This document shows positions 8,254-33,998 of a DNA stretch of 64,000 bases, one piece after another; position 1 is the first letter of the stretch, and each line of letters starts with the position of its first letter. Made by a program: the position numbers and the translations under genes. Location: positions 1 through 64,000 of the forward strand of contig JAHQWK010000030.1 of NCBI GenBank assembly GCA_029856145.1. The letters run 5' to 3'. The notes beneath the pieces are model-generated. The model was not told where the DNA came from. It made no database searches and worked only from the letters and a program-made list of their open reading frames with translations. This DNA comes from Promethearchaeia archaeon. Lineage in GTDB: Archaea > Asgardarchaeota > Lokiarchaeia > Sigyniarchaeales > SOKP01.

Positions 8254-10194
8254 ATGGAAAATAAAACTCATCGGATTGGATACTATGCTTGTCAATGAGG
8301 CGTAAATATTAAGACTAAAGTAGGTTGCGATGAATTAGTGGAATATGTGAAAAATCTTGGAGATGAAATCATTATATCAAAGAAAAATTCATTTCTTTGA
8401 ACTGATAATGCTCAAAACGAAATAATTGAGGATATTAACGAAAAGAATTTAAACAGAATTGTGGCATCAGCTTGAACACCGCGCACACACGAGGTGATCT
8501 ACCGAGGGACCATCGCTAAGACAGATTTAAATCCTTATTACTTTCAAATGGTTAATGTACGGGAACATTGTTCTTGGTGTACAGATAGTAAAGAAGAAGC
8601 TACAGAAAAGGCAAAAATCTTAGTGAAAAGTGGTATTGAGAGAGCAAAACTATTGGAGCCAGTTCCTATTAAAACTGTCCCTGTCACTAAAGCTACTTTA
8701 GTTGTAGGAGGTGGAATTGGCGGTATGAATGCAGCTTTGGATCTTGCTAACCAAGGTATTAAAGTCTATCTTGTCGAACAAAAAACTACGATAGGGGGGA
8801 GAATGTCTCAACTTGACAGAACTTTTCCTACAGATGACTGTGCGATATGAATTTGCGGGCCTGTTATGCTCAATATCAATAGAAATGAGAATATTGAATT
8901 ATTAAGCTTTAGCGAAGTAAAGAAAATTGAAGGATATGTGGGTAATTATACTGTTACCATTGAAAAGAAACCACGTTATACAACAGATGAATGTAATGGG
9001 TGTGGAGCTTGTGCTGAAGTGTGTCCAGTTTACACAACAAATTATTTCGACGAAAATTTAGGGGCACGGAGAGCAATTGACATATCATTTGATCAAGCAG
9101 TACCGTTTTTATATGATATAGACAGGAATGCTTGTATAGAATGTTTCTCGTGTGTAGACGCTTGTGAATTAGATGCTATTGATTTTAGTCAAATACCAAA
9201 AGAAGTCAATATTGAAGTTGGGACAGTAATAATAGCAACAGGTTGGGATATTCATGAACCTTATGGTGAATATGGATATGGTGAAATCGAGAATGTTATA
9301 ACTCAAGTTCAACTAGAACGGATTTTAGCTCCAAATGGACCACTTGAAGGCCATGTGCACCGAATTTCAGATGATAAAGAGCCTAAAGAAATTGTTTTTA
9401 TACAGTGCGTGGGAAGTCGAGAAACAGAAAGAACCTATTGTAGTGGTGTATGTTGTATGCTTGCATTAAAAAATGGGCGATTATTACTGGAAGAATTTCC
9501 CGATGCGAACATAACAATCTGTTATATTGATATAAGAACTCCTGAAAAAGGATTTGAAGAATACTATGAACGAGCTAAAGATGCAGGTATTAGAATGATT
9601 CGTGGAAAAGTTGGTGAAATCTCTGAAGATCCTGAAACTAAAAATGTGAAAGTTCGCGTATATTCATCTCTCACAGATAAGATTGTAAAAATTGATGCTG
9701 ATTTAGTTGTTTTATCTACAGCAGCACTCCCTTCAAAAGGTACTGAACAGATTGTAAAAGTATTAAATCTTGATACTAATATGTATGGCTTTCTTACAGA
9801 ATCACATTTCGGTTTAATGCCACAAGAAACAAAGGAAAAAGGAATTTTTATTGCTGGATTTGCTCAGGGACCGAAAAATATTTCTTATTCAGTTTCTCAA
9901 GCTAGAGCTGCGGCTAGTAAAGTTGCTGAGTTAACATCACCAGGAGAAATCGATATAGAACTTATTACTGCGGAGGTGGACAGTGAATTCTGCATTTCTT
10001 GTAGACGATGCGAAAAAGAATGTCCTAAAAATGCCATTAGGATTGAAAAGGATATCGGTGCGTTTATTGATGAAATAAATTGTGACGGATGCGGTATTTG
10101 TGCTACGTGTTGTCCTACTCAAGCAATTGATATCAGATATTATCGAGATCATCAATTATTTGCTGAAATTGATGGTCTTTTAGGAGGTGGTTAA
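8254..10194 (+). CDS. hdrA: Selenocysteine-containing heterodisulfide reductase subunit A (646 aa, 4 Sec: U15, U49, U74, U199)
   Basis: One frame joins ATG 8254 with ORFs 8494-8850 and 8866-10194. In-frame TGA at 8296 (CQUG vs CHCG), 8398 (FLUT vs YTCS), 8473 (SAUTPRTHE vs ASCTPRTHE) and 8848 (DDCAIUI vs NDCAICI), all aligned to Cys of the HdrA paralogs in this window. GGGIGG FAD motif and ferredoxin motifs are intact. Confidence 0.93.
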
Positions 10195-10200
10195 ACAAAC

Positions 10201-10662
10201 ATGAATAATACTTATAATATGATCGTGTTTGCTTGCTTAAAATGAGGATATAGCGCGGCTGATTTAGCTGGGGTTTCCCGATTAAAGTATACTCCTGCGG
10301 TAAAAATTATCAAAGTAAGATGTACCGGTAGAGTTGACATTAAGCACATTTTGTATAGCATTCGTGCGGGAGCTGATGGTGTTATGATTGTCGGTTGAAG
10401 ACCTAATGAATGTCAATTTAAAAACGGTAATTTCACAGCCGAAAGGCATGTTGATTTAGCAAATAGAATCTTAGAATCTAGAGGTTTCGGTAGTCAAAGA
10501 ATAAATATGTATTGGTTAAGTGGAGGAGATGCTGGGAAATTTGTCGAATCTGTCGAGGATGCTTACGAAAAGGTAAAAAAAGCTGGACCAAGTCCACTGA
10601 ACTTAGAACCCGAAGAAATGAAAGTTGATACAAAACAAGTTATAACTACCCCTACAGAATGA
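10201..10662 (+). CDS. mvhD: Selenocysteine-containing MvhD/VhuD [2Fe-2S] subunit (153 aa, 2 Sec: U15, U66)
   Basis: Missed by the ORF track. Translation MNNTYNMIVFACLKUGYSAADLAGVSRLKYTP...VRCTGRVD...GADGVMIVGURPNECQF. TGA 10243 and 10396 align to Cys in CNWCSY and GCHIGDC of the paralogs at 17748 and 30312. Confidence 0.93.
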
Positions 10663-10715
10663 TTCTTATAAACAAATTCTAGTTATAAGAAGACTAACCT
10701 TGCAAGGGAAGGGGT
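10648..10715 (+). ncRNA. Eukaryote-like (Lokiarchaeota-type) SECIS element
   Basis: ATGA (10659-62), stem TTCTTATAA (10663-71), apical region ACAAATTCTAG with unpaired AAA, stem TTATAAGAA (10683-91), GA (10692-93). Lower helix ACCCCT (10648-53) pairs with AGGGGT (10710-15). Lies directly 3' of two UGA-containing genes. Confidence 0.85.
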
Positions 10716-10780
10716 TTTTAAATAGTATTCAATTAAAAATAAAAATTTTTATAGAAAATGTAATCCAAAAGGATGAAAAT

Positions 10781-12277
10781 ATGGTTCAAATTTCAAGAAC
10801 TATCAATTTCAATGGAATATCGCCAAGAAATTTAATGGATGCCACCTATAAAGCAGTCGAAAACTTTCAAATTAGGGCATTTTTCGAAGCAAAAGATGAA
10901 ATTTTGAAAACTGGAAAATATTCTGAAGAAGAATTTTATGAAATATTAGATACTATGATCGATGCTGAAACAGAGCGTAAATTAGTGTTAGAGGCATTAA
11001 TAGGTAAAGAACCGTTATTTTTAGAGGAAATTTCAAAAACTCTAAAAGATTTTCCACCAGAAAACGTCATTCGTGATATTATTTATCTTAAAGAACAAGG
11101 ATATATTGAAGAACATATTGAAATAAAAACTAAAACAGTCATTAAGAAAATAAAGGGAGAAGAAAAAGAAGTCGAGGAAAAAGAATATTTCTATAGGTAT
11201 CAAGTTAAAGAGATACCTGATGGTTTTATTGAACATTTTTTTGAAACCGTTTCTATTGTGTTTGATTTTAAAGTATGCTGTCAATGTGGTTGGTGCTCAT
11301 CAATTTGCCCTGTTAATGCAATTACAGTCACCGCAGACACTTTAGAGATTGATGATGAAACTTGTATAAAATGTGGCTTATGTTATTCTGTTTGTCCGAG
11401 ATCTTTTTCAATTGAACAAGCAGGTAAAAGTATAAATAAACTTGATAAATCTTTAAAATTTTCAGAAAAAATTAATAGTTATATTAATACATATTCTGCC
11501 ACCACCACTAAGGATGAAATTAAAAAAGTTCGACAAGATGGTGGGATTGTAACTTCTCTACTCGAATATTTACTCAAAAATAAATTAGTTGACGCCATTG
11601 TAGCAGTACAACATTCGAAGGACTTATGGAAACCAGAACCAGTAATAGTAGAAGACATTAAAGATTTGTACAAAACTAGTGGAACTAAATACGCAAATGC
11701 ATCAACATTAAGTATAATCGATGAAACAAAAAAGTACGATAATATTGCGATTGTAGGTGTCCCGTGTATGATGAACGCTTTAGAAAAAGGAAATTTATTT
11801 CCAAGTAGACTGCCTTTTTTCAAGAATATCAAATATAGAATAGGACTTTTCTGCATGGAATCTTTTCCTTACGAGGGCGTCCTTAACTTAATTAAAGAAC
11901 AATTTCAAACAGATTTTAAAAAAGTAACAAAAATGGATATAAGTGGAGGTAAATTCATTATATACTTAGATTCTGGTGAGGACTTAAGAGTACCCTTAAA
12001 GGAAGTTAAATCTTATGCTCGGTACAATTGTCATTTTTGCGAGGATCTAACATGCGATTTTGCAGATGTCAGTATTGGCTCAATTGGTTCACCCAGTGGG
12101 TGGTCTTCGGTAATAACGAGAACTAAATTAGGCGATAAACTTTTTAAGGACGCTATTAAGAAAGGATTAATTGAATCTAAAAGTTTAAAGGATGTTAAAC
12201 CTGGACAACCCTTACTTGAACGGATAGCTGGAATAAAAAGAAAAAATTGTAAACCAATCAAATTGGAAAAGGAGTAA
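10781..12277 (+). CDS. FrhB-family F420-binding subunit with N-terminal helical/wHTH extension and 2x[4Fe-4S]
   Basis: CCQCGWCSSICP, CIKCGLCYSVCP, QDGGIVT, GVPC, IGLFCMESF and CHFCEDLT motifs. ATG 10781 is preferred over TTG 10700, which lies inside the SECIS. Confidence 0.88.
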   Translation: MVQISRTINFNGISPRNLMDATYKAVENFQIRAFFEAKDEILKTGKYSEEEFYEILDTMIDAETERKLVLEALIGKEPLFLEEISKTLKDFPPENVIRDIIYLKEQGYIEEHIEIKTKTVIKKIKGEEKEVEEKEYFYRYQVKEIPDGFIEHFFETVSIVFDFKVCCQCGWCSSICPVNAITVTADTLEIDDETCIKCGLCYSVCPRSFSIEQAGKSINKLDKSLKFSEKINSYINTYSATTTKDEIKKVRQDGGIVTSLLEYLLKNKLVDAIVAVQHSKDLWKPEPVIVEDIKDLYKTSGTKYANASTLSIIDETKKYDNIAIVGVPCMMNALEKGNLFPSRLPFFKNIKYRIGLFCMESFPYEGVLNLIKEQFQTDFKKVTKMDISGGKFIIYLDSGEDLRVPLKEVKSYARYNCHFCEDLTCDFADVSIGSIGSPSGWSSVITRTKLGDKLFKDAIKKGLIESKSLKDVKPGQPLLERIAGIKRKNCKPIKLEKE

Positions 12278-12293
12278 TGTAAAAGTTATTATT

Positions 12294-13406
12294 ATGAGTA
12301 TAAAAACTTTTCAAGATTTAATTAAGGAAGTTCACGAAAAAGGAATCTGCCAAGAATGTGGAGGATGCACTTCTTTCTGTTCAGCAGCATTCGAAACTGT
12401 TATAGGCTTCAAAAAACCTAATTCTCCTCCTGAATACATAAACAAAGATGCATGCCTTGAGTGCGGTATATGTTATTACTTATGCCCTCAAACACATATC
12501 TTAGATGATGACCTAAATAATACTTATCAATTCACTGATTTTACATCAATGCCTTACGGATTTGCTGAAGATGTCTATTCTTGTCAGACTATAGATGAAG
12601 AATTTCTTAAACATGGGACAGATGGAGGTGTGGTAAATACACTTTTAAATTTCTTATTAGAAAATAAAATTATCGATGGAGCAATAGTCTCTAAAGTTGA
12701 GAGTCCATTTTCTCGAGAAGCCATGTTAGCAGAGAATAAAGGTGACCTAATTAAAGCATCGGGTACAATTTTGAATGTATCTCCACAAGTAGATGAAATA
12801 CAAAGGTTTAGCACTTATACACGCTCAATTCCTCAATTAAGTCATTATAAATTTAAAAAGTTAGCAATTGTGGGAACACCTTGTCAAATTTATACTATTA
12901 GATGTATGCAAACTTTAGGTGTTACCCCTTCGGAACATATTGAGATTTGTTTTGGTTTATTCTGTTATCATAATTTTCTATTTGAAAAATCTCAAATCGA
13001 GAAATTTGAAAAAGAGTTTAAGGTAAAATTTGAAGATATAAAAAAAATAAACATTAAGGAAGATTTAATTCTAAAGGTAGAGGATAAAAACTCAAAAGAA
13101 AAGATAATTCATATTCCTTTTAATAAATTAGTTAATTATATACGCCCAGCTTGCCATTCCTGTCTTGATTTTACTAATGTTTATTCAGATATTTCGTTTG
13201 GAGGGCTTGGATCTCCAGACAAATTTACCACTGTAATTCCTCGTACTGAAAAAGGTAAACAATTATTCCAAAAAGCATTAGATAAAAATATAATTAAGAA
13301 TCTAAAACTTGATGAAAATGTAAAAAGAAATATGAAAACCCTAATAACAAAGTTTTCTAAATCAAAAATTGAACGAAGAAATGAATTCATGAAAAACTTA
13401 AAATAA
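12294..13406 (+). CDS. FrhB-family F420-binding subunit
   Basis: CQECGGC, CLECGICYYLCP, TDGGVV, GTPCQ, GLFC and CHSCLDF motifs. Confidence 0.88.
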   Translation: MSIKTFQDLIKEVHEKGICQECGGCTSFCSAAFETVIGFKKPNSPPEYINKDACLECGICYYLCPQTHILDDDLNNTYQFTDFTSMPYGFAEDVYSCQTIDEEFLKHGTDGGVVNTLLNFLLENKIIDGAIVSKVESPFSREAMLAENKGDLIKASGTILNVSPQVDEIQRFSTYTRSIPQLSHYKFKKLAIVGTPCQIYTIRCMQTLGVTPSEHIEICFGLFCYHNFLFEKSQIEKFEKEFKVKFEDIKKINIKEDLILKVEDKNSKEKIIHIPFNKLVNYIRPACHSCLDFTNVYSDISFGGLGSPDKFTTVIPRTEKGKQLFQKALDKNIIKNLKLDENVKRNMKTLITKFSKSKIERRNEFMKNLK

Positions 13407-13410
13407 GGAA

Positions 13411-14688
13411 GTGAATTTTATAGTAGAAATTGAAAGATCTAAAAGGGCAAAATTGGAAGCAGATGAATTTGATTCGTACTTAAGAAAGATATATGAACCA
13501 AATTTAATTGATTTATTGAAAAAATGCTATCAATGCGCCCGTTGCTCAGGTGTATGTCAAATCAGTAAAGTTCAAAAATTTACACCTAGTAGAATCATTC
13601 AAATGATATTAGAAGGTTTTGAAGATGAGATAATTAATAGTCAGGTATTATGGGATTGTTTAATGTGCAATAGTTGCTTACAACATTGCCCTAAAGATAT
13701 TAATTTTGCTGATATTGTCAGAATGGCTAGATATAAAATGCGAACAAAAGATATCCAAAATCCTGATCGTTCTATTGCTCATAAAGGTATTTATCCTCTA
13801 ATGTCAGAACTTATGATTCAAAAAAATATTAAAATTGAAAGACCTTTAGATTGGATTCCAAAAGGCTGTAAAATTTCAAATAAAGGAGATATTTTATATT
13901 ATGTAGGATGTTTACCTTTCTTTAATTATGAATTTCAAGACTCAAATTCCATAGCAGAAAGCACTTTAAAGATTATTTGTCAATTAGAAAAAGATCCAGT
14001 AGTTATTCTTAAAGATGAAATATGTTGTGGTCACGATTTATATTGGGGTCAAGCAAAATTCGAAGTTTTTATCGAATTAGCAAAAAAAAATATAAATATC
14101 TTTGAAAAAGCAGGAATCTCAAAAATAGTTACTGCATGTGCTGAATGTTATAGAACTTTTAAAATTGATTACCCGAAGCTTTTTGAAGATTTTAATGAAA
14201 AATTTGAAGTTAAACACATAATTGAATATATATATGATAAGTGGAAGCAGGGAAAAGTCCAATTTAAAAATCCTAATGAATCTAGTGATGTTATTCCTTT
14301 CACTTATCATGACCCTTGTAGATTAAGTAGATTTTTACCAAAGGATAATAAAATTATTGAGAAAGTCCGAGAAATCTTCAAACATTTGAAGACAATAGGA
14401 TATAATTTTAATGAAATGGAACATAATAAAGAAAATTCCTATTGTTGTGGAGTAAATTCTTGGATGAATTGTAATGAAAAGTCTAAAGCTTTACGATATA
14501 AGCGTCTTTTAGAAGCTAAAGCTGCTGGAACAAAAATGATTACAGCATGCCCAAAATGTCGAATGCACTTAAATTGTCTAAAAAAAGACTATGAAGACTT
14601 CTCCTCTATTGAAATCTTAGATTTTTCAGAATTCTTAGTGGATTTTATAAAAATAATAGAACCTAATCAAACAGTTGAGGAGAAGTAA
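13411..14688 (+). CDS. HdrD/GlpC-like Fe-S oxidoreductase (2x[4Fe-4S] plus two CCG domains)
   Basis: CYQCARCSGVC, CLMCNSCLQHCP, YVGC...CCG...CAEC and HDPC...CCG...CPKC motifs. Confidence 0.88.
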   Translation: MNFIVEIERSKRAKLEADEFDSYLRKIYEPNLIDLLKKCYQCARCSGVCQISKVQKFTPSRIIQMILEGFEDEIINSQVLWDCLMCNSCLQHCPKDINFADIVRMARYKMRTKDIQNPDRSIAHKGIYPLMSELMIQKNIKIERPLDWIPKGCKISNKGDILYYVGCLPFFNYEFQDSNSIAESTLKIICQLEKDPVVILKDEICCGHDLYWGQAKFEVFIELAKKNINIFEKAGISKIVTACAECYRTFKIDYPKLFEDFNEKFEVKHIIEYIYDKWKQGKVQFKNPNESSDVIPFTYHDPCRLSRFLPKDNKIIEKVREIFKHLKTIGYNFNEMEHNKENSYCCGVNSWMNCNEKSKALRYKRLLEAKAAGTKMITACPKCRMHLNCLKKDYEDFSSIEILDFSEFLVDFIKIIEPNQTVEEK

Positions 14689-17600
14689 TGGAGAAAGTCG
14701 GCGCTGTCTTAGTTATTGGTGGCGGAATTGCAGGGATCCAAACTTCTATAGATTTAGCAGATTCAGGTTATAAAGTTTATCTAGCAGAATCGACAACCAG
14801 TATAGGTGGGGTTATGTCTCAATTAGATAAGACATTTCCAACTAATGACTGTGCAATATGTATACTTGCCCCAAAATTGGTACAAACTGGTCGACATGAA
14901 AATATCGATATTTTAATTAATTCATCAATTGAAAAAATTGAAGGTGTTCCTGGTAATTTTAATCTTGATTTAACTCAAAGAACGCTTCTTTTGGATCATA
15001 ATAAATGTACAGGGTGCGGGTTATGTGCTCAACATTGTCCTATAGAGGCTATAGATTTTTTTAATGAGAAGCTTTCTAATATTGCAGCAATATCTGTAAA
15101 ATTTCCTCAAGCAGTTCCATTAGTGTTCTCAATTAATAAAGAAAAATGTATAGGTTGCGGTATTTGTAAAGGAATTTGTAAAGCAAAAGCTATAGATTAC
15201 GAACTTCAAAATGAATTAATTAACCTCAATGTAGGAGCTGTAGTATTAGCAATTGGGTTTGATGAATACGATCCTACACCTTTAACGCAATTTGGTTACG
15301 GTAAGCATTTAAATGTGATTACTAGTATTGAATTTGAACGTATACTCAGTGCTAGTGGACCACACTCAGGTTTAATAATTCGCCCTTCTGATGGAATTAT
15401 CCCTAGAAAAATTGCCTTTTTACATTGTATAGGGTCAAGGGATAGAAAACATAGAATTGAATACTGCTCTTCTGTGTGTTGTATGTATACTACAAAGGAA
15501 GCAGTAATAGCAAAAGAGCATATGAATATTATAGAACCAACTATTTTTACAATGGATGTCAGAGCATATGGTAAAGATTTTGATAAATATATTGAACGAG
15601 CGAAGAATGAGTATGGAGTAAGATATATCAGACGTAGAATATCTTCTATTAAGGAAATTCCGGACTCTAAAGATTTAAAGGTTTATTATGAAACAGGAAA
15701 TGGAAAAATTATTGAAGAAATTTTTAATCTAGTCGTCCTTTCTGTAGGAATGCAACCTAATCAACAAGCAAAAGAACTAGCACAGAAATTAAATATCCAG
15801 TTAAATGAATATGGGTTTTGTAAAACTGGAACTTTTAACCCAGTAGAAACTTCAAGACCAGGGATTTATGTTTGTGGGTCTTTCGCAACACCTAAAGATA
15901 TTCCAGAAACTGTTATTGAAGCTAGTGCTGCTGCTGGATGTGTAAATGTTCTTTTATCAGAAGCAAGAAACAAATTAGTCTCTAAGAAAGAACTTCCCGA
16001 GGAAATAGATGTAAGTGATCAACCACCGCGAATAGGAGTATTTATATGTCATTGCGGGATAAATATTGGTGGGGTTGTTGATGTTCCTGATGTAGTTGAA
16101 TATGTGAAAACTTTACCTGATGTAGTTTATGCAGAACATAATTTATATACCTGTTCAGCAGATACTCAGACTATTATTAAAGAAAAAATCGAAGAAAACC
16201 AACTCAATAGAGTTATCGTTGCCTCATGTACTCCAAGAACACATGAACCTTTATTTCAAGCAACAATCAGGGAGGTTGGTTTAAATAAATATCTTTTTGA
16301 AATGGTTAATATTCGAGATCAATGTTCATGGGTTCATATGCATGAACCTGAAAGAGCAACCGCAAAATCAAAAGATTTATTGCGTATGTCAGTGGCGAAG
16401 GCTAGTCAATTAATCCCGTTACAGGAACAAGAAATCACTGTAATAAATAAAGGGCTAATTATAGGCGGGGGTGTATCTGGAATGTCAGCAGCATTAAATT
16501 TAGCTTCTCAAGGGTATGAAGTTTTCTTAATTGAAAAGGAAGAAGCTCTAGGTGGGCTTGCTAAAAATATTTATCGAACCCTCGAAAATGATGATACCCA
16601 GGAATATCTTGAAAACCTAATTAAAAATGTTGAAGATAATCAACTAATTCAAGTATATAAAAATGCTCAAATCAATTCAATATCAGGATATATAGGAAAT
16701 TTTTCCACAAATGTAAGCTACGGAAATAATAGCAAAAGTGTTGATCTAGAACATGGGATAATCATTGTAGCTACTGGCGCAAAAGAATATCAACCAAAAG
16801 AATATAGTTTCGGGCAAGATCAAAGAATTATATCTCAAACTGAATTTGAAAAAGATCTTTTTACTACGGATAAAATAAAAGGATTGAAATCAGTTGTTAT
16901 GATTCAATGCGTTGGATCTAGAAATGAAGATCACTCCTACTGTAGCAGAATCTGCTGTTCAGAAGCCATTAAAAATGCGTTGAAAGCAAAAGAAATCAAT
17001 CCTAATATAGAAATAGTGATTCTATATCGTGATATTCGAACATATGGTTTTAAAGAAAAATACTATAACTTAGCACGAGATAAAAAGATTATTTTCATTA
17101 GATTTGATGAAACTAAACTTCCTGAATTAAATATTAAAAATAAACAGTTAATAATAACAGTAAACAATCCAGATTTAGGAGAACTTGAAATAAATCCAGA
17201 TTTAATTGTGTTAAGTACGGGGCTTGTAGCACCCATAAAAGAAAACGAAGAGTTAGCAAAAATGTTAAAAGTTCCACTTAATGAGGATAAATTCTTTTTA
17301 GAAGCTCATGTTAAATTGAGACCAATTGATTTTGCAACAGACGGTATATATTTATGTGGGTGTGCACATTCGCCTAAAGATCTTCGAGAATCAATTGCCC
17401 AATCTAATGGAGCTGCTGGTCAAGCAGTTAAAATCTTAAGTGCTAAAAAACTTGTAACATCTGGGCTTGTAGCTGTCGTAATAGAGGAAAATTGCATTGG
17501 CTGTGGAAGCTGTATGGAAGTCTGTCAATTTAATGCTATAGAATTAATAGAGGAAGAAAGAACATTTGAAGATTTCACAATGACTATAAAGAAATCCCAC

Positions 17601-17729
17601 ATAAATCCAGCGCTTTGTAAAGGTTGTGGCACATGTGGTGCTCAATGCCCTAATTCAACAATAGTTATTAAACATTTTGGTTTTGAGCAAATTCACGCTA
17701 TGATTTCTGCTCTTTTAGTCCAAAGTTAA
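14688..17729 (+). CDS. hdrA: Large double-FAD HdrA-family protein (Cys form)
   Basis: Two GGG.xG FAD motifs, QLDKTFPTNDC, internal CHCG/CS/CTPRTHE/RDQCSW domain and ferredoxin motifs. Confidence 0.9.
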   Translation: MEKVGAVLVIGGGIAGIQTSIDLADSGYKVYLAESTTSIGGVMSQLDKTFPTNDCAICILAPKLVQTGRHENIDILINSSIEKIEGVPGNFNLDLTQRTLLLDHNKCTGCGLCAQHCPIEAIDFFNEKLSNIAAISVKFPQAVPLVFSINKEKCIGCGICKGICKAKAIDYELQNELINLNVGAVVLAIGFDEYDPTPLTQFGYGKHLNVITSIEFERILSASGPHSGLIIRPSDGIIPRKIAFLHCIGSRDRKHRIEYCSSVCCMYTTKEAVIAKEHMNIIEPTIFTMDVRAYGKDFDKYIERAKNEYGVRYIRRRISSIKEIPDSKDLKVYYETGNGKIIEEIFNLVVLSVGMQPNQQAKELAQKLNIQLNEYGFCKTGTFNPVETSRPGIYVCGSFATPKDIPETVIEASAAAGCVNVLLSEARNKLVSKKELPEEIDVSDQPPRIGVFICHCGINIGGVVDVPDVVEYVKTLPDVVYAEHNLYTCSADTQTIIKEKIEENQLNRVIVASCTPRTHEPLFQATIREVGLNKYLFEMVNIRDQCSWVHMHEPERATAKSKDLLRMSVAKASQLIPLQEQEITVINKGLIIGGGVSGMSAALNLASQGYEVFLIEKEEALGGLAKNIYRTLENDDTQEYLENLIKNVEDNQLIQVYKNAQINSISGYIGNFSTNVSYGNNSKSVDLEHGIIIVATGAKEYQPKEYSFGQDQRIISQTEFEKDLFTTDKIKGLKSVVMIQCVGSRNEDHSYCSRICCSEAIKNALKAKEINPNIEIVILYRDIRTYGFKEKYYNLARDKKIIFIRFDETKLPELNIKNKQLIITVNNPDLGELEINPDLIVLSTGLVAPIKENEELAKMLKVPLNEDKFFLEAHVKLRPIDFATDGIYLCGCAHSPKDLRESIAQSNGAAGQAVKILSAKKLVTSGLVAVVIEENCIGCGSCMEVCQFNAIELIEEERTFEDFTMTIKKSHINPALCKGCGTCGAQCPNSTIVIKHFGFEQIHAMISALLVQS

Positions 17730-17747
17730 ATTATAAGGTATTAATTT

Positions 17748-18179
17748 ATGTCTAAGTCAAAAAAGAAAGTAAATAAAAAGGATTTTCACCCTAATATATT
17801 GTGTTTTTGTTGTAATTGGTGTAGTTATGCTGGGGCAGATTTAGCTGGCGTATCTCGTTTTCAATACCCTCCCACTATTAGAATAGTAAGAGTAATGTGC
17901 TCTGGTAGAGTAGACCCGGCTTTTATTTTAGAAGCATTTAGAGATGGGATTGACGGAGTCATTGTGACAGGCTGTCACATTGGTGACTGTCATTATCTGA
18001 AAGGAAATGAGTTTGCAAGAGATAGGTTTGAAAATTTTCAGGAAGTTCTAAAAATATTCAATCTTGAAAAAAGATTTAGACTTGAATGGGTTAGTGCGTC
18101 TGAAGGAAAAAGATTTGCTGAAGTTATTACGGAATTTACAAATGAAATTAAAAAACTAGGTCCATTACAAGCAATTTAA
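17748..18179 (+). CDS. mvhD: MvhD [2Fe-2S] subunit (Cys form)
   Basis: CCNWCSYAGADLAG, VMCSGRVD, GCHIGDCHY and WVSASEG motifs. Confidence 0.93.
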   Translation: MSKSKKKVNKKDFHPNILCFCCNWCSYAGADLAGVSRFQYPPTIRIVRVMCSGRVDPAFILEAFRDGIDGVIVTGCHIGDCHYLKGNEFARDRFENFQEVLKIFNLEKRFRLEWVSASEGKRFAEVITEFTNEIKKLGPLQAI

Positions 18180-18381: not shown

Positions 18382-20706
18382 TTATTGTTTTCTTTTCTTT
18401 TTTCTTCTAATTAACAATATGCTTGCTATACCTATCACTGCTCCTCCACCAATAATCGAAGCTAGAATAATTAATTCGATAGGAATAGCTCCATCTGCTG
18501 TTATTTCTCCAACAGTCATAGTAACTGTGTGGGTCGTAAAATGACTATAAATATCCGTAAAATTCACCGTATAGATATATTGACCTTTGGATAGACCATC
18601 TGGAACATTATACGAAATTGCCGTGCCATTTGACCACATACTCGGACCAACTACGATACCAGACCCCTGAAGCTCAATCGTGAAATTGCTTGGGTTTGGA
18701 TCTACTGCCGTCCATGAAATATTTTGCCCTGTATAACCGAGTTCTACACTGAAGTCACTTGGTGAGCTTGTTAATATCGGGTTTACAACATGACTTCGAA
18801 TTTGAATGATGGCCAAACCTGGATAAAAATCTGCTAAATAGGCATAATCTCCGCTCACCCAAATGTCTGTAGAGATTCCATCCGTATTTTCGTATATGGG
18901 CATTCCTGGATTGGTAGGGTCAGAAATGTCAATAACCGCTAAACCTGAGGTACCATCAGCTACATAGGCGTAATCTCCGCTCACGTGAACGTCCCGTGCT
19001 ACACCAGCTGTATCCATATATATAGGTACCCCTGGATTAGTCGGGTCGGAAATGTCAATGATCGCTAAGCCTGAAAGTCCATCTGCTATATAGGCATAAT
19101 CTCCGCTTATGTAGACATCATTTGCAGAATGAGCCGTATTTCTATATATGGGTGTCCCAGGATTGGTAGGGTCAGAAATGTCAAGAATCGCCAAGCCTGA
19201 ATTTTCAACTCCTACATAAGCATAATCCCCCTCCACGTAAACACTAAGTGCAAAACCAGCTAAGCCTACGCCTTTAGGCAGTCCTGGGTTGGTTGGATCA
19301 GAAACATCAATGATCTCCAAACCTGGGGTACCATCAGCTACATAGGCATAATCTCCGCTCACATAAACATCATTTGCAATAAAACCCGTATCTTCATACA
19401 CGGGTGTTCCCGGGTTGGTCGGGTCAGATATATTAATGATCGCTAAGCCCGACGTATCAACCGCTACATAGGCGTAATCTCCGTCCACGTAAACCTTACG
19501 TGCAGCTCCGCTTGTACTCTCATGTATGGCTATTCCGGGATTGATTGGATCAGAAATATCAATGATAGCTAAGCCTCCAAGACGAGAAGCCATATAAGCA
19601 TAATTACCGCTAACATAAACTCCATCTGCATGAGAATTAGTGTTTTCATATACAGGGGTTGTTGGATTTATCGGTTCGGAAATTTCAACGACTGCTAAAC
19701 CCGCATTTTCCTCAGCCACATAGGCATAATCCCCGTCTACGTAAACTCCATGTGCAGAATCCGCTGTGTTTTCGTATACATGCAGTCCTGGGTTGGTTGG
19801 ATCAGAAATGTCAATAACCGCTAAGCCTGAAAGACTATCCGCTACATAGGCATAATCTCCATATACGTAAACATCATATGCTGATCCGGTCGTATCTTCA
19901 TAAACGGGCGTTCCCGGGTTGGTAGGATCGGAAATGTCAATAACCGCCAAGCCTGAAAGACTATCCGCTACATAGGCATAATCTCCGGTCACATAAACGC
20001 CCACTGCACTTCCGATCGTGTCTTCGTAGATGGGTGTTCCTGGATTGGTTGGGTTGGATATATCAATGACCGCTAAACCTTCATCTCCATCTGCTACATA
20101 GACAAAATCTCCACTCACGTAAACATCAAATGCAAGTCCGATCGTATCTTCGTAAAAAGGCGTTCCCGGGTCAGTCGGGTCGGATATATTGATAACCGCT
20201 AAGCCTGAGCCATAATCAGCCATATAGGCAAAATCTCCGCTCACGTAAACATTATATGACGATCCGGTTGTATCTTCGTAAAATGGCGTTCCCGGGTCAG
20301 TCGGGTTGGATATATTGATAACCGCTAAGCCAGACCCATAATCTGCCACATAGGCATAATCTCCATACACGTAAACATCATATGCTGATCCGGTCGTATC
20401 TTCGTAAAATGGCGTTCCCGGGTCGGTCGGGACTGAAATATTAATTACTGCTAAGCCCGAAGAACCATCTGCTACATAGACATAATCTCCACTCACGTAA
20501 ACACTTTTTGCCTGTCCAGTTGTATCTTCGTGGAATACATTAGATATTTTAAGGATAGATGTAGTAATATCTTCTATTATCTTTGCGTTACTTCTTCTAT
20601 TACTTGCTAATAAATTTGGGATTATGACTAATGTTATAAAAATCGTGATTACAAACCAAATATTTACTTTTTTCCTCTTATTTGTTTTATATTTGCAATT
20701 TTTCAT
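18382..20706 (-). CDS. LVIVD-repeat beta-propeller surface protein with Ig-like domain and C-terminal TM anchor
   Basis: N-terminal hydrophobic segment, 14 repeats of ~42 aa (VYVSGDYAYVAD..SGLAVIDISDPTNPG), C-terminal TM and RRKKKRKQ. The start is ATG 20706 or 20745. Confidence 0.9.
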   Translation of the reverse strand: MKNCKYKTNKRKKVNIWFVITIFITLVIIPNLLASNRRSNAKIIEDITTSILKISNVFHEDTTGQAKSVYVSGDYVYVADGSSGLAVINISVPTDPGTPFYEDTTGSAYDVYVYGDYAYVADYGSGLAVINISNPTDPGTPFYEDTTGSSYNVYVSGDFAYMADYGSGLAVINISDPTDPGTPFYEDTIGLAFDVYVSGDFVYVADGDEGLAVIDISNPTNPGTPIYEDTIGSAVGVYVTGDYAYVADSLSGLAVIDISDPTNPGTPVYEDTTGSAYDVYVYGDYAYVADSLSGLAVIDISDPTNPGLHVYENTADSAHGVYVDGDYAYVAEENAGLAVVEISEPINPTTPVYENTNSHADGVYVSGNYAYMASRLGGLAIIDISDPINPGIAIHESTSGAARKVYVDGDYAYVAVDTSGLAIINISDPTNPGTPVYEDTGFIANDVYVSGDYAYVADGTPGLEIIDVSDPTNPGLPKGVGLAGFALSVYVEGDYAYVGVENSGLAILDISDPTNPGTPIYRNTAHSANDVYISGDYAYIADGLSGLAIIDISDPTNPGVPIYMDTAGVARDVHVSGDYAYVADGTSGLAVIDISDPTNPGMPIYENTDGISTDIWVSGDYAYLADFYPGLAIIQIRSHVVNPILTSSPSDFSVELGYTGQNISWTAVDPNPSNFTIELQGSGIVVGPSMWSNGTAISYNVPDGLSKGQYIYTVNFTDIYSHFTTHTVTMTVGEITADGAIPIELIILASIIGGGAVIGIASILLIRRKKKRKQ

Positions 20707-20869
20707 TAATTCGCACCTTTTTCTAAAATTATGTAAATAGTCCATAAGCTTGATCGTTTATATGTTTTTGTTAAATTTTAAATTATTTTACATTAAGTTT
20801 TATTCCTTTTTAGAATATGTAGGACAAATTCTTAACTATTAAGATTAGAATTTTGTAAAATTCCTGAAA

Positions 20870-21529: not shown

Positions 21530-21613
21530 TTTGTTTTAGGTATATTTTTTATATTTACTATAATATTAATATTTAATACATTATTTATAAATCAAAAAGT
21601 GCGATTTGAATGA

Positions 21614-21637
21614 GTAAGTATAAGTTCTTATACTTAC
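21614..21637. promoter_or_regulatory. Perfect palindrome GTAAGTATAAG-TT-CTTATACTTAC, candidate HxlR-family operator
   Basis: 11-bp perfect arms between the divergent methyltransferase and hxlR-like genes. Confidence 0.7.
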
Positions 21638-21670
21638 ACTATTTTAATCCAAATTTCATGGGTGGTAAAA

Positions 21671-22126
21671 ATGGGATATTCTTTAGAAAAGAAAAAAGAG
21701 GAATTAAAAGAAATGATTGAATTAATTCCAAAAATGCAAGAATCTGTTCGAAATGGATTAAAAAAGCATTTCCAAGGATTAAATAAACAAAATAAGGGTT
21801 CTATTGAATTTGAATTACATTCATTACGAAAGGCGATAGAAATTCTTGATTCAAAATATGTTTTAGACATTATATTCGTTTTAAGTAGAGAGGGGGAAAG
21901 TTTTTTTTTTAATGAATTAAAATCCATGTTATCTCATGTTAATGTAGGAACATTATCAAAACGGCTGAAAGAATTGGAAAAGGATAAAGTTATTGATCGA
22001 AAAGTGTATCCTAATGAACGTCCAATTCGTGTGAGTTACAGCTTAACTAAAATGGGGTATGGCATGTTTTATTTACTTCTTCCAATGTTGGTTTATGTTA
22101 CCTATATTGATGAATTTCTTAATTGA
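21671..22126 (+). CDS. HxlR/DUF24-family winged-helix regulator
   Basis: FNELK...VNVGTLSKRLKELEKDKVIDRKVYPNERPIRVSYSLTKMG. Confidence 0.85.
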   Translation: MGYSLEKKKEELKEMIELIPKMQESVRNGLKKHFQGLNKQNKGSIEFELHSLRKAIEILDSKYVLDIIFVLSREGESFFFNELKSMLSHVNVGTLSKRLKELEKDKVIDRKVYPNERPIRVSYSLTKMGYGMFYLLLPMLVYVTYIDEFLN

Positions 22127-22683
22127 ACTAATCCTCCCTAAAATCGATATAATGGCTAAGTCATGTTGTATTTGGTAGTCTATCTCTAATTTGATTTAAT
22201 ATCTTAATAATAAACTCTTCTCCAGTAGCAACATCAATGCTTTCTCCATTTTCTGCATTATTTTAATGATTCTTGATCGATTCTGCTAACTTTAATGAGA
22301 AATGTGTTGGAGATGGATCATAATATTATTTATTATTATCATCATCTAACATTATGTAGACAATGGACAATTTTAAAATATTCTCCTACTCAAATCCATC
22401 ATTTCCACAAGAAAAGTTCCCAATTTGGATCTCATTCTTTTAATTACTTAACAAAAACGAACAAAACATTCAGAAAGTCTAAAGAAAGATGGGAATTATG
22501 ACCGATTACGAAAAATCAAACACAAAAGATGTTTGGGACTGATCATTCACAAAGTGAAAAATGTAGGATATTGATCATTTATTATAAAAATATTTATATA
22601 ATTACATTTCTTTATTTTTTAATCAACGGAAAAAAAGATGCGGAAAACAACTCTTTATCAAAAAAATTAAAAAGTGTTAAATA

Positions 22684-25600
22684 ATGGAAGGATCAGTATT
22701 AGTTATTGGTGGGGGGATTGCAGGGATACAAACTTCTTTGGATTTAACTGAATTAGGCTTTAAAGTTTACTTAGTAGAAAAGACTCCTTCAATTGGAGGA
22801 AGAATGGCTCAACTTGATAAAACCTTTCCAACAAATGATTGCAGTTTATGTATTCTTGCCCCTAAAATGGTGGAAGTATTTAGAAATCCTAACATTGAAT
22901 TAATGACTTATCATGAAGTTCAAAAAGTCTCTGGAAAGCCAGGAAATTTTGTGGCTACAGTCTTTAAGAAACCTCGTTATATTGATGAGACTAAATGTAA
23001 AGGATGTGGTGACTGTGCTACTAAATGTCCAAAAATTGAATTCCCTAACATATTTGATATGAATCTAGGTAAAAGAAAATCTATTTACATTCCATTTCCT
23101 CAAGCAGTACCCCCTGTATATTTAATTGACCCTGAATTATGTTTAAAACTCACTAAAGGAGTATGCGGAGTTTGTGAAAAAGTTTGTAAGGCAGAAGCAA
23201 TAGATTTTGAACAAAAACCTCAAGAAATTAAATTAAACGTTGGTGCTATCGTTGTTGCTACTGGATATGATGTATTAGGAGAAGAGTTAACCTCAAGATG
23301 GGGTTATAATTATAAAAATGTAGTAAATGCTTTAGAATATGAAAGGATGCTGTCTGCGTCTGGTCCGTTTGGAGGTCACATTTTAAGACCAAGTGATGAG
23401 AAAGAGCCAGAAATAATAGGATTTATTCAATGTGCGGGGTCAAGGGATTTACGCGAGGGAATTCCCTATTGCTCTTCAGTTTGTTGTATGTATATAGCTA
23501 AGGAAGCAATCATAACTAAGGAACACTCTGAACAATCCAAATGTTTTGTATTCAGGCATGATGTTAGAGCTTATGGTAAAAACTTTTATGAATTTACCCA
23601 GAGAGCTCAGGAAGAATATGGAGTAAAATATTTCCAGACTAAAATTAGTAGAATAATAGAAGATCCAGAAACAAATGATTTAGTAATTCATTATGAAGAT
23701 CTAAAAACGGGTGAATTTAAGGATTTTAAGGCAAATCTAGTGGTGTTAGCTACACCTCTTGTCCCTTCAGCTGGAACTAAGGAATTAGCGAAAGTTGTAG
23801 ATATCGAGTTGGATGATTATAATTTTTTTAAAGAGAAATCATATTATAATAAATCTTTATCCTCTAAAGAGGGCTTTTTTTTAGCTGGTTTTTGTCAAGG
23901 TCCAATGGATATACCAGAAACGGTAGCTGACGCTAGTGGGGTAGCTTCACAAGTAGCGATTCTACTTAATTCCTTTAAATTTACTGAAACAAAAGAGAAA
24001 ATTATTGAGATACCAGAAAAAATAGTTAAAGAAACAGATATAACCAGAATTGGAGTCATTATCTGTCATTGTGGTATCAATATTGGAAAATACATTGATA
24101 TTCCTCAAGTTATAGAACACATAAAAACATTGCCTAATGTAGTCTTTTGTGAAGATAATTTGTATTCTTGTAGTTCAGATTCTCAAGAACGAATTAAAGA
24201 AGTAATAGGTGAATATAATTTAAATAGATTTATTGTAGCTTCTTGTACGCCAAGAACACACGAATCTCTATTCCAGGAGACATGCCAAGAAGCGGGATTA
24301 AATAAATACTTATTTGAAATGGTGAATATCCGTGATCAATGTTCATGGGTACATATGACAGAAAAAGAGCTTGCTACGGAAAAAGCAATTGATTTAATAA
24401 GAATGGGTGTTGCTAAATCAAGATTATTAAAATCACAAGAAGAAAAGAAATTGAAAATCACTCAAACTGCAATGGTAATCGGTGGAGGAATATCCGGAAT
24501 GACTGCTGCATTAAACATAGCTAATCAAGGATTTATTGTTTATCTTATAGAAAAAGAGAAATATTTAGGTGGAAATTTAAGATACTTAAATATGCTATAT
24601 CCTACTCAAGAGGATGCTTCAGTCTTACTAAACGAAACCATAGAAAAGGTTGAACAGAATAAGAATATTCAAATCTTTTCAAATTCTGATTTAAAAGATA
24701 TTAATGGATATCTTGGTAATTATAATGTTTCACTTATCGATTCAGATAATAAAATTCATGAGTTAAAAATTGGCACTATTATTGTTGCCACTGGAGGACA
24801 AGAATTAAAACCTAATGAATTTTTTGAATATAAATATACGAACCACAATGTAATTACACAATTACAACTAGAACAGAAATTAAAGGATGAAGATAATTCA
24901 TGGCTTGATAAACTTAATCACATTACTACTCTATTATGTGTTAATGCTAGACAAGAAAAAGGGATAACATATTGTTCAAATATATGTTGTGAAAGTGCTA
25001 TAAAGAATATTAATATCTTAAAGGAATTAAAGCAAGACCTTAAACTAATTGTTCTTTATAGAGATCTTCAAATGGCAAAGAAAGAATTTGAAAGATATTA
25101 TCGTGAACGAAGAAAAGATGCCATTTTTTTGAGATATGATTTAGATAATCCGCCTGTAATTAAAGAGAAAAATAGTGGAACAAGTAAGTTTGAAATTAAA
25201 GTATTTGATACCAATTTACAAGATAATATCAAATTTGATACAGATTTATTAGTATTATCCACACCTATGATTCCCGCTGACAATTTAGATGAGCTAGCAA
25301 AAATGCTCAAGGTTCCTCTAGACAAAAATGGTTTCTTTTTAGAGGCTCATGTTAAATTGAGACCGTTAGATTTTGCTACTGATGGAATATTCTTATGTGG
25401 ATGTGCCCAATGGCCAAAAAATATACAAGATTCAATATCACAAGGAAATGGTGCCGCAGGAAGAGCATGTAGGTTTTTAAGCGCAGAGGAAATTACCACA
25501 TCTGGATTAATAGCGGAAGTAGATCCAGAGATGTGTATCGGATGTGGAACATGTGAGGAAGCATGTTCCTATAGCGCAATAGAAATTATAAGTGTCATGA

Positions 25601-25764
25601 AGGAATTTGAAGAAGTAAGTCTACCAATAAAAAAATCTTCTGTAAATTCAAGTTTATGCAAAGGATGTGGTACTTGTGCGGTGAATTGTCCAGTTGGGGC
25701 AATTTCTATTAAGCATTACGATTTTGAACAAATAAATGCTATGATTAGGACATTAGCAATGTAA
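22684..25764 (+). CDS. hdrA: Large double-FAD HdrA-family protein (Cys form)
   Basis: Same architecture as 14688 and closely similar to 27194. Confidence 0.9.
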   Translation: MEGSVLVIGGGIAGIQTSLDLTELGFKVYLVEKTPSIGGRMAQLDKTFPTNDCSLCILAPKMVEVFRNPNIELMTYHEVQKVSGKPGNFVATVFKKPRYIDETKCKGCGDCATKCPKIEFPNIFDMNLGKRKSIYIPFPQAVPPVYLIDPELCLKLTKGVCGVCEKVCKAEAIDFEQKPQEIKLNVGAIVVATGYDVLGEELTSRWGYNYKNVVNALEYERMLSASGPFGGHILRPSDEKEPEIIGFIQCAGSRDLREGIPYCSSVCCMYIAKEAIITKEHSEQSKCFVFRHDVRAYGKNFYEFTQRAQEEYGVKYFQTKISRIIEDPETNDLVIHYEDLKTGEFKDFKANLVVLATPLVPSAGTKELAKVVDIELDDYNFFKEKSYYNKSLSSKEGFFLAGFCQGPMDIPETVADASGVASQVAILLNSFKFTETKEKIIEIPEKIVKETDITRIGVIICHCGINIGKYIDIPQVIEHIKTLPNVVFCEDNLYSCSSDSQERIKEVIGEYNLNRFIVASCTPRTHESLFQETCQEAGLNKYLFEMVNIRDQCSWVHMTEKELATEKAIDLIRMGVAKSRLLKSQEEKKLKITQTAMVIGGGISGMTAALNIANQGFIVYLIEKEKYLGGNLRYLNMLYPTQEDASVLLNETIEKVEQNKNIQIFSNSDLKDINGYLGNYNVSLIDSDNKIHELKIGTIIVATGGQELKPNEFFEYKYTNHNVITQLQLEQKLKDEDNSWLDKLNHITTLLCVNARQEKGITYCSNICCESAIKNINILKELKQDLKLIVLYRDLQMAKKEFERYYRERRKDAIFLRYDLDNPPVIKEKNSGTSKFEIKVFDTNLQDNIKFDTDLLVLSTPMIPADNLDELAKMLKVPLDKNGFFLEAHVKLRPLDFATDGIFLCGCAQWPKNIQDSISQGNGAAGRACRFLSAEEITTSGLIAEVDPEMCIGCGTCEEACSYSAIEIISVMKEFEEVSLPIKKSSVNSSLCKGCGTCAVNCPVGAISIKHYDFEQINAMIRTLAM

Positions 25765-25904: not shown

Positions 25905-27194
25905 TTGAATGAAGTGAATATTATTACTGAGACTAAAAAAACAGATGATTCAGAAGAACTCAGCGATGACATCAATTCTTACATTGAAAAAGTTTATGAA
26001 CCAAATATAAGGAAATTATTGTATAGATGTTATCAATGTGTTCGCTGTAGTGGTGTCTGTCAACTCAGCAAGGTTCAGACTTTTGAACCTAGTAGAATAA
26101 TTCAAATGATATTAGAGGGTTTTGAAGATAAAATTATTGAGAGTGGCATTTTATGGGATTGTTTAACTTGTAATGCTTGTCTTCAAAATTGTCCTGAAGG
26201 AATTAATTTTGCAGATATTGTTAGAATGACAAAATATAAAATGCGAGAATCGTATAATCAAAACCCGGATGATTTTATTGCTCATAAAGGTGTATATACC
26301 ACTATCTCAGAGATAATGAGTGAATCTCATATAATTCCAGAAAGATCCCTTGAATGGGTTCCTAAGGGATGTGAAATTTCAAAACAAGGAAAGATTATGT
26401 TTTATGTTGGGTGTTTACCCTATTTTAATTTTGAGTTTGAAAATTCAGATTCTATAGCAGAAAGCACTTTAAGCATACTTTGCCAGATTGAAAAAGAGCC
26501 AATTGTAGTTCTTCAAGATGAAATTTGTTGTGGACATGACCTTTATTGGGGTCAAGGAAAACTCAAAGAATTTATCAATTTGGGGAAGAGGAATATTAAA
26601 AGAATTGAAGAAACTGGAGTTAAGACAATAATTACGGCATGTGCTGAATGTTATAGGACATTTAAAGTAGATTATCCGAATTTATTTGAAAATTTTAATA
26701 AAAAATTCGTTATCAAACATTTAATTGAGTATGTCTATGAAAATTGGAAAGCAAATAAAATTGAATTTAAGAACCCATCTGAAAAAGAACAACCAATTCC
26801 ATTTACTTATCATGACCCATGTCGTCTAAGTAGATTTTTACCGAAAGATAGTAAGATAATAGATAATGTACGTGAAATTTTTTCTCATTTAAAGCAAATA
26901 GGATATGAATTTTCTGAAATGCTACATAATAAAACTGATGCTTTGTGCTGTGGAGTAAGTTCCTGGATGAATTGCAATGATCGCTCAAAAGCCTTACGCT
27001 ATAAAAGGTTATTAGAAGCAAAAGATGCAGGGGAAATAATGGTCACTTCATGTCCTAAGTGTAAAATACATTTGTCTTGTCTACAAGAAGACTATGAAGA
27101 TATCGCATCAATAGAAATAGTAGATTTTTCTGAATTCTTAGTTAATCTAATAACTATTGTAGATTCTAATCAAAAGGTGGAGGGAGAAAAATAA
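25905..27194 (+). CDS. HdrD/GlpC-like Fe-S oxidoreductase, paralog of 13411
   Basis: CYQCVRCSGVC, CLTCNACLQNCP and two CCG domains. Start position is uncertain. Confidence 0.88.
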   Translation: MNEVNIITETKKTDDSEELSDDINSYIEKVYEPNIRKLLYRCYQCVRCSGVCQLSKVQTFEPSRIIQMILEGFEDKIIESGILWDCLTCNACLQNCPEGINFADIVRMTKYKMRESYNQNPDDFIAHKGVYTTISEIMSESHIIPERSLEWVPKGCEISKQGKIMFYVGCLPYFNFEFENSDSIAESTLSILCQIEKEPIVVLQDEICCGHDLYWGQGKLKEFINLGKRNIKRIEETGVKTIITACAECYRTFKVDYPNLFENFNKKFVIKHLIEYVYENWKANKIEFKNPSEKEQPIPFTYHDPCRLSRFLPKDSKIIDNVREIFSHLKQIGYEFSEMLHNKTDALCCGVSSWMNCNDRSKALRYKRLLEAKDAGEIMVTSCPKCKIHLSCLQEDYEDIASIEIVDFSEFLVNLITIVDSNQKVEGEK

Positions 27195-30100: not shown

Positions 30101-30295
30101 GAAATAATAAAAGAATTTGAGGATATCAGTATTAAAGTCAATAAATCTAATATCAATGCTGCTGTATGTAAAGGTTGTGGAACATGTGCTGCAACATGCC
30201 CCGTTGGAGCTATAATGGTAAAACATTATGATTTTGATCAAATTTCTACAATGATTGATTCCTACTTATTAGAAAAGGAGGAAGTTAAGAATTAG
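27194..30295 (+). CDS. hdrA: Large double-FAD HdrA-family protein (Cys form)
   Basis: QLDKTFPTLDC, CHCG, CTPRTHE and C-terminal ferredoxin motifs. Coupled to the upstream gene by a TAATG overlap. Confidence 0.9.
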   Translation: MEGSVLVIGGGIAGIQISLDLTELGFKVYLVEKSPSIGGRMAQLDKTFPTLDCSLCILAPKMVEVFRNPNIELMTYHEVLHIDGEPGNFTAKILKKPRYVDEEKCKGCGDCANKCPKILAPNPFEMNIGKRKSVYIPFPQAVPPIYLIDSEMCLYLQKGVCQVCKKVCTAEAIDFEQKPEEFDIKVGAVVVATGFEMPAENLSSRWGYRYENVVSALEYERILCASGPFDGHVMRLSDDKEPEVIAFVQCAGSRDLHENVPFCSSVCCTYTAKQAIITQEHSDNSECYVFRHDIRAYGKNFYEFTQRAQKEYGVKYFQSKISTIKEDPDTQDLFIHYEDLKTGEFKDFRANLVVLASPLVPSKGVKELGYSLGIELDKYNFFQEKSYFDKLKSSRDGVFLCGFCQGPMDIPETVADASGVAAQIANLLNSVKFTQMKEKVFDVPEKEIKITDEPRIGVMVCHCGINIGNYVDVPRVVEYVKELQNVVVCEANLYSCSSDSQIRIKELIAEYDLNRFIVASCTPRTHESLFQETCQEGGLNKYLFELVNIRDQCSWVHMTEKEAATEKAIDLIRMHVAKSKLLKPQKEDKVDITHTALIIGGGVSGMTAALNIANQGFKAYLVEKESELGGNLKFLNVLYPVHKNALEFLRELKEKIDKNNNIQVFLNGGIKNIKGYVGNYDVVINDSNNEIHDVKIGTIIVATGGQEFKPSGLFGYNDKNKNVMTQLELEQKLQNKDHSWLDQINRVTIILCVNARQDEGITYCSNICCANSIKNVRILKELKPELEIVVIYRDLQMAKKEFEEYYRERRKDAIFLRYDLEKLPEVKKKKGTPEKFQIIVFDTNLKDNLEFETDLILLSTPMIPADNLKELAMMLKVPLDKNGFFLEAHVKLRPLDFATEGIFLCGCAQWPKNIQDSISQANGAAGRASRFLSADKITTSGLVAEVSEEKCIGCGKCEDVCPYKAISLIEIIKEFEDISIKVNKSNINAAVCKGCGTCAATCPVGAIMVKHYDFDQISTMIDSYLLEKEEVKN

Positions 30296-33995: not shown

Positions 33996-33998
33996 ATT

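Follow-up and report, generated by a model that had tools for sequence, protein, structure and literature searches.

An hdrA frame with four in-frame UGA codons

The window, by which we mean the whole 64,000-nucleotide stretch analysed here, carries on its forward strand (+) an hdrA gene at positions 8254-10194. When TGA is read as U, the frame runs for 646 codons and closes with a TAA terminator. It holds exactly four in-frame TGAs, at 8296, 8398, 8473 and 8848 (codons 15, 49, 74 and 199); it has no other stop, and no frameshift interrupts it. Under table 11 the same DNA yields just two fragments, 8494-8850 and 8866-10194, and public protein collections contain only a 442-aa C-terminal piece, named either '4Fe-4S binding protein' or 'heterodisulfide reductase subunit A'. 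A first-pass annotation of this DNA had described an HdrA with four selenocysteines (Sec) that is hidden in the ORF track as fragments, and its coordinates and counts were exact.

Over its whole length the translated frame aligns with solved HdrA proteins, among them 9sfi_A (E 8.5e-195, residues 7-644) and 5odc_A (E 7e-189); 8rvu and 7bkb match as well. Pfam assigns Pyr_redox_2/FAD domains and Fer4 domains at residues 240-313 and 570-630, and the HdrA domain set is complete: an N-terminal 4-Cys domain, an FAD-binding TrxR-like domain (GxGxxG), the CxxC/U pair, a C-x11-C-x3-CC cluster motif, and inserted and C-terminal 2x[4Fe-4S] ferredoxin domains. In the translation, the stretches CQU, FPTDDCAIU and CVGSR...YCSGVCC align with their counterparts in the PDB entries. 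The NCBIfam equivalog cut-offs for CoB-CoM HdrA/HdrA2 are not reached (NF040770, 749 against 1100 bits; NF041778, 602 against 1400), these HdrA models being about 770 positions long (771, 777 and 762), of which the 646-aa protein covers the first ~640-650 only. Judged by its sequence, the gene is a member of the HdrA family, and this does not imply CoM-S-S-CoB as substrate.

U15 (8296-8298) is the second Cys of the CxC motif and corresponds to Cys13 of 5odc HdrA; U49 (8398-8400) corresponds to Cys46 and U74 (8473-8475) to Cys71. The fourth, U199 (8848-8850; all four on the + strand), is the canonical HdrA Sec, with Cys197 of 5odc, Sec197 of M. maripaludis and Cys205 of M. marburgensis as its equivalents (PMC13518236, PMC13580544). 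In 5odc numbering, C13/U15/U49/U74/C196/U199 thus read C11/C13/C46/C71/C194/C197. All four U columns are Cys in the solved HdrA structures, except that 9sfi_A has X (Sec) at the U199 column.

vhuD and the conserved gene cluster

Six nucleotides past the hdrA TAA starts vhuD/mvhD (FlpD family; 10201-10662, +), a gene of 153 codons that matches PF02662 with an E value of 4e-42. Its Sec codons are 15 (10243-10245) and 66 (10396-10398), and the window's two all-Cys MvhD paralogues have Cys at both columns. The vhuD stop codon, UGA at 10660-10662, is at the same time the UGA of the AUGA in the SECIS element described below.

Further downstream on the + strand lie two FrhB/FdhB-like genes (10758-13406; the first from 10700 or 10758 to 12277, the second 12294-13406), an HdrD-like gene with a ferredoxin and two CCG domains (13411-14688), and an all-Cys fused double HdrA of 1013 aa followed by an all-Cys MvhD (together 14688-18179). 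Family matches and synteny support these assignments. The order hdrA with four U, vhuD with two U, two FrhB/FdhB-like genes, HdrD-like CCG gene, fused double HdrA and MvhD is kept in four relatives. Subunits associated with HdrA are therefore found at the locus itself, vhuD right downstream and the HdrD-like CCG protein beyond it. Probably the FrhB/FdhB-like pair supplies the electron-input subunits of the hdrA operon, and the HdrD-like protein would, again probably, be the disulfide-reducing partner of HdrA.

The window encodes three fused double-HdrA proteins of 1013-1033 aa (14688-17729, 22684-25764 and 27194-30295). In these proteins the first half carries an FPTxDCxxC pair at about residue 50 and lacks the N-terminal cluster domain, whereas the second half has no CxxC pair and opens, at residue 454 or 461, with the CxC N-domain. 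This split arrangement accounts for the lack of a Cys at the U199 column in the half matching the present hdrA. The first-pass annotation had Cys in the three paralogues at every TGA position; this holds for the 13/15/49/74 columns, in the second half, but the equivalent of U199 is found in the first half instead. The fused proteins resemble the built-in heterodimers of Chadwick et al. 2022, with the halves reversed relative to the order stated there.

A single SECIS element behind both genes

A hairpin of the lokiSECIS type occupies positions 10641-10720 (+), with its core at 10659-10693. It comprises the AUGA (10659-10662) and GA (10692-10693) motifs, a lower stem in which CCCC (10649-10652) pairs with GGGG (10711-10714), a perfect 9-bp upper stem (10663-10671 with 10683-10691) and an 11-nt, A-rich apical loop (10672-10682). 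The element is kept at the equivalent place in 19 related loci. Across these 19 loci, 10 pairs have changed on both sides, compared with 2.6 in shuffles, and 92.6% of cells are paired, compared with about 50% when the partners are slid.

A covariance model built from the element gives one strong match in the window, at 101 bits, and also matches behind further hdrA-vhuD pairs with Sec in the genome. A second SECIS within or right behind hdrA was looked for; the next best match, 17 bits (E 0.057) at 11792-11865 (+), lies inside an FrhB-like gene and was taken as chance. Rfam searches of the window at gathering thresholds returned nothing, a permissive scan of 10560-10800 gave chance-level hits only (E 4-6), and the SECIS families of Rfam do not match; lokiSECIS is not an Rfam family.

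The six UGA codons (four in hdrA and two in vhuD) lie 263-2363 nt upstream of the SECIS, U15 being the furthest at 2363 nt. RNA-library contigs that are nearly identical to the window cover parts of hdrA and retain the TGA at 8848, a hint of transcription from metatranscriptome assemblies in which DNA carry-over is possible. One 816-nt metatranscriptome contig (run X16, 96% identity) corresponds to window 9985-10790 and spans the hdrA 3' end, vhuD and the SECIS. It is weakly compatible with a single hdrA-vhuD mRNA, since an assembled contig gives no strand, ends or level. Presumably hdrA and vhuD are translated from such a single mRNA, in which case one SECIS would serve six UGA codons. Decoding of the hdrA UGAs would then be directed by one eukaryote-like lokiSECIS hairpin 1.8-2.4 kb downstream.

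Selenocysteine genes and genetic code of the host

The host genome (3.55 Mb, about 30% GC, 97% complete) contains a tRNA-Sec, found by ARAGORN and by Rfam RF01852 (62 bits, cut-off 47), and adjoining it a SepSecS gene (477 bits). About 4 kb from the tRNA-Sec lies a candidate for EFSec/SelB (231 bits), and a PSTK-like gene scores 146 bits against a methanogen/bacterial model; both fall under the curated cut-off and both are the clear best candidates of the genome. The neighbourhood of SepSecS, tRNA-Sec and the EFSec/SelB candidate spans G000:C8:11546-18019. Two tandem selD/SPS genes have one in-frame TGA each (G000:C9:622849-624880) and match the duplicated Sec-SelD of Loki/Thor genomes (Huang et al. 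2024, PMC11227280). A reassigned genetic code was considered and ruled out, as TGA terminates 410 of the 2724 long frames genome-wide (about 15%).

Conservation of the UGA codons

We scanned species-representative genomes and obtained 80 loci, 76 of them full-length, whose identity is 75-94% and which all stem from Promethearchaeota/Asgard MAGs. Every full-length orthologue from these other Promethearchaeota genomes (76/76) has TGA at codons 15, 74 and 199. At codon 49, 56 have TGA and 20 have TGT/TGC, whereas C13, C196 and C201 are Cys codons throughout. Recurrence of identical TGA codons in 76/76 orthologues is far beyond chance. A search of the whole genomes of 40 relatives likewise recovered four-TGA orthologues, at 89-92% identity, in at least 15 congeners, together with many paralogues that have 1-3 TGAs. 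The first-pass annotation had named TGA/Cys conservation in Asgard genomes and Sec machinery in the host among the points on which its four-Sec reading would turn, and on both the genomes agree with it.

Compared with the window hdrA, mismatches run at 0.30-0.52 at third codon positions and at 0.07-0.26 at positions 1 and 2, and they do so in every inter-TGA segment, codons 1-14 included. This third-position bias indicates that all segments of hdrA are under protein-level selection. It bears directly on the possibility that the TGAs are true stops, either in a pseudogene undergoing decay or in a row of short, separate genes. Such a reading would account for the bare 442-aa C-terminal fragment that gene callers and public databases give, and for the use of TGA as a normal stop elsewhere in the genome. 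We give it next to no credence: the TGAs are identical in orthologues down to 75% identity, even the 14 codons before the first TGA bear the coding signature, frameshifts and further stops are absent, and the gene comes with a conserved SECIS and a genome that holds the Sec machinery.

Could the UGAs be read through without Sec-tRNA, for instance by a near-cognate Cys or Trp tRNA? This might apply to some or all four sites, particularly to those furthest from the SECIS (2.2-2.4 kb), since no archaeal system has been experimentally shown to serve distances such as that of U15, or six UGAs, and since codon 49 exchanges freely with Cys. We consider it very unlikely. In 76 genomes codons 15, 74 and 199 are strictly TGA and not TGT/TGC, which speaks for an inserted residue other than Cys that is under selection, and every published Loki hdrA-vhuD pair follows this arrangement (PMC4989117).

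Conserved TGAs, TGA/Cys exchange at codon 49, the coding signature in all inter-TGA segments, the SECIS and the complete Sec machinery lead us to regard the four UGA codons as almost certainly read as selenocysteine. With high confidence we take the gene to be an intact hdrA of Promethearchaeota (Lokiarchaeia-type Asgard) whose four UGAs are decoded as Sec by way of the lokiSECIS behind vhuD, with selenium placed on N-terminal and relay sites.

Among 46 further HdrA paralogues from the same order, those with any Sec all have it at position 199. At the other three positions these paralogues have Sec at 15 alone (19 sequences), at 15 and 49 (8), at 15 and 74 (3), at 49 and 74 (3), at 49 alone (3), at 74 alone (2) or at none of the three (5). 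Taken over about 125 HdrA orthologues and paralogues, Sec thus occurs at 15, 49 and 74 in every combination, and never at Cys13 or Cys196. Close neighbours in the chain therefore differ: Cys13, first of the CxC, and Cys196, first of the CxxU, are never Sec, whereas 15 and 199 almost always are.

A few HdrA relatives have rare extra TGAs, at codon 300 (L054, L066 and L094), 297 (L117), 613 (L057), 257 and 294 (L133) and 401 (L119). These sites are classical CxxCxxCxxxC ferredoxin ligand cysteines, or belong to the CC motif of the TrxR-domain cluster. If they are not assembly errors, they would place Sec at undisputed Fe-S ligand positions.

Comparison with known systems

Multi-Sec HdrA of Lokiarchaeota is a published protein. 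According to Mariotti et al. 2016, Loki HdrA can hold Sec at five positions, no more than four of them at once and always at the canonical one near residue 200; all Sec align to conserved Cys, and the hdrA-vhuD tandems have very short spacers, with hdrA always ending in UAA or UAG (PMC4989117). Behind vhuD they placed one lokiSECIS (AUGA/GA, 9-bp stem, A-rich 11-nt loop), which serves as many as six UGAs over about 2 kb (PMC4989117). Huang et al. 2024 catalogued 1439 Asgard selenoprotein sequences, among which HdrA and FrhD/VhuD are the most numerous (PMC11227280). With its TAA stop, and vhuD after 6 nt on the same strand, the window hdrA follows the rules of PMC4989117. It resembles the known Lokiarchaeota tandems in the canonical Sec near residue 200, the two-Sec vhuD directly downstream, the hdrA UAA stop, the vhuD UGA stop in or beside the SECIS and the single shared SECIS, whose motifs, upper stem and loop agree exactly with the published lokiSECIS. 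We find no essential difference, and the window gene is another species' copy.

A multi-Sec Loki HdrA with a SECIS common to vhuD has been known since 2016 (PMC4989117), and the core finding here is a rediscovery. What we add is a structural reading of the three N-terminal Sec, which maps them on structures solved after 2017 and contradicts the non-ligand remark of 2016, and the frequencies of Sec/Cys combinations across the orthologues and paralogues. The locus is also another instance of central energy-metabolism genes in Asgard genomes being cut short by standard gene calling. As public records hold the truncated HdrA, metabolic reconstructions may miss or mis-size this protein.

Sec-HdrA of Methanococcales/Methanopyrus, as in the Hdr-Vhu-Fwd complex of M. 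maripaludis (PMC13518236, 9sfi), shares with the window protein its family, its domain order and the CxxU Sec beside the bifurcating FAD, and in the partner VhuD the same two columns are Sec as in the window vhuD. To the one Sec of the methanogen HdrA, the window HdrA adds three in its N-terminal cluster domain. The methanogen SECIS is archaeal-type and gene-specific, while that of the window is eukaryote-like and common to two genes. Moreover, the window comes from a non-methanogen, and at this locus FrhB-like and HdrD-like proteins take the place of the methanogens' HdrBC and Vhu hydrogenase.

A more distant parallel is BamE/BamF of class II benzoyl-CoA reductase, an HdrA-type bifurcating flavoprotein in which a Cys pair relays electrons from FAD to an N-terminal-type cluster, E3 (bioRxiv 10.64898/2026.04.10.717634). 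The MvhD-like BamF has Sec at the extra Cys that corresponds to VhuD U15 here. The Bam system differs in being bacterial and in having another substrate module, and BamE has Cys, not Sec, at pair and cluster.

Selenium at the N-terminal cluster

HdrA's N-terminal domain bears a [4Fe-4S] cluster, HA3/A3 (PMC9012536, PMC13518236), which the HdrA literature regards as a low-potential electron acceptor. Across five solved HdrA sequences only four Cys are conserved in this domain, at positions 13, 15, 49 and 74, and U15, U49 and U74 are three of those four; their earlier assignment to the N-terminal Fe-S motif is thus correct at the level of sequence. C25 was considered as a fifth ligand and ruled out, as it is not conserved in 8rvu or 7bkb.

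Published accounts disagree on the fourth or fifth ligand of this cluster. Chadwick 2022 gives Cys197 as a ligand of the N-terminal cluster, whereas the cryo-EM papers of 2026 describe the pair to which it belongs with an unknown ligand or with an Se-S bond. The CxxC/U pair is described as having the FAD on one side and the MvhD [2Fe-2S] cluster or HA3 on the other, and as binding an unknown ligand (PMC13580544); in M. maripaludis, Sec197 takes part in an Se-S feature at the CxxU pair (PMC13518236). An HdrA-type pair has also been described as a relay that lies 3.4 A from the HA3-equivalent cluster (bioRxiv 10.64898/2026.04.10.717634). In some states a mobile arm moves the N-terminal cluster 16-33 A from the CxxC/U pair. 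With the arm away from the pair, the cluster would have to rely on the four N-domain residues. On the strength of conservation and the published descriptions, it is therefore plausible that two or, more likely, three ligands of the N-terminal cluster are Sec in this HdrA.

U199, as the canonical Sec of the CxxC/U pair, would sit between the bifurcating FAD and the N-terminal cluster, and selenium would be concentrated along the low-potential exit route of flavin-based electron bifurcation. Since U15, U49 and U74 are among the only four conserved Cys of the cluster domain, a selenium-rich N-terminal Fe-S site that could tune bifurcation is plausible. We propose that Se may replace S at most ligand positions of the cluster that takes the low-potential electron, and at the Cys/Sec relay beside the flavin, a step whose mechanism is still termed unresolved in the 2026 Hdr structures. 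In its full form the proposal has a largely Se-ligated N-terminal cluster that is tuned for bifurcation and approached by U199 of the partner protomer as a relay, with six Se, two of them from VhuD, lining the mobile-arm/FAD interface. We lean slightly towards this full form. A largely Se-ligated cluster is not stated in the HdrA literature examined and was explicitly denied in the 2016 description, a remark that predates the HdrA structures (PMC4989117).

The denial belongs to a different view of the three N-terminal Sec, namely that they are non-ligands whose redox-active selenols form selenenylsulfide or diselenide relays. Mariotti et al. held that the Sec sites do not coordinate clusters and proposed 'multiple catalytic Cys' (PMC4989117). 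By way of VhuD U15, HdrA U15 is homologous to Cys16 of MvhD, an 'additional', non-ligand Cys (PMC13580544), so that U15 could be a relay residue and not a ligand; the equivalent residue of BamF is Sec19, for which a selenenylsulfide intermediate has been proposed (bioRxiv 10.64898/2026.04.10.717634). The Se-S feature at Sec197 (PMC13518236) fits the same idea. So does the distribution of Sec, as C13 and C196 are never Sec in more than 120 sequences while 15, 49, 74 and 199 can be, which suggests that the Sec-prone sites share a role that is absent from C13. We nevertheless find it unlikely that all three are relays. The need of the [4Fe-4S] cluster for four ligands when the arm is away would leave at most one of the three Sec positions as a non-ligand, and the TGAs of rare relatives at undisputed ferredoxin ligands (297, 300, 613, 257 and 294) would mean that Sec is tolerated at Fe-S ligand sites in this family.

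Other frames in the window

Three further TGA-joined frames were examined as Sec genes, at 33039-35273, 21599-22141 and 22295-22684, and were set aside as ordinary neighbouring genes or as frames without a family match. Between two Hdr clusters, on the opposite strand (18382-20745, -), the window encodes a 787-aa protein that consists almost wholly of LVIVD repeats (14 stretches, E 7e-152).
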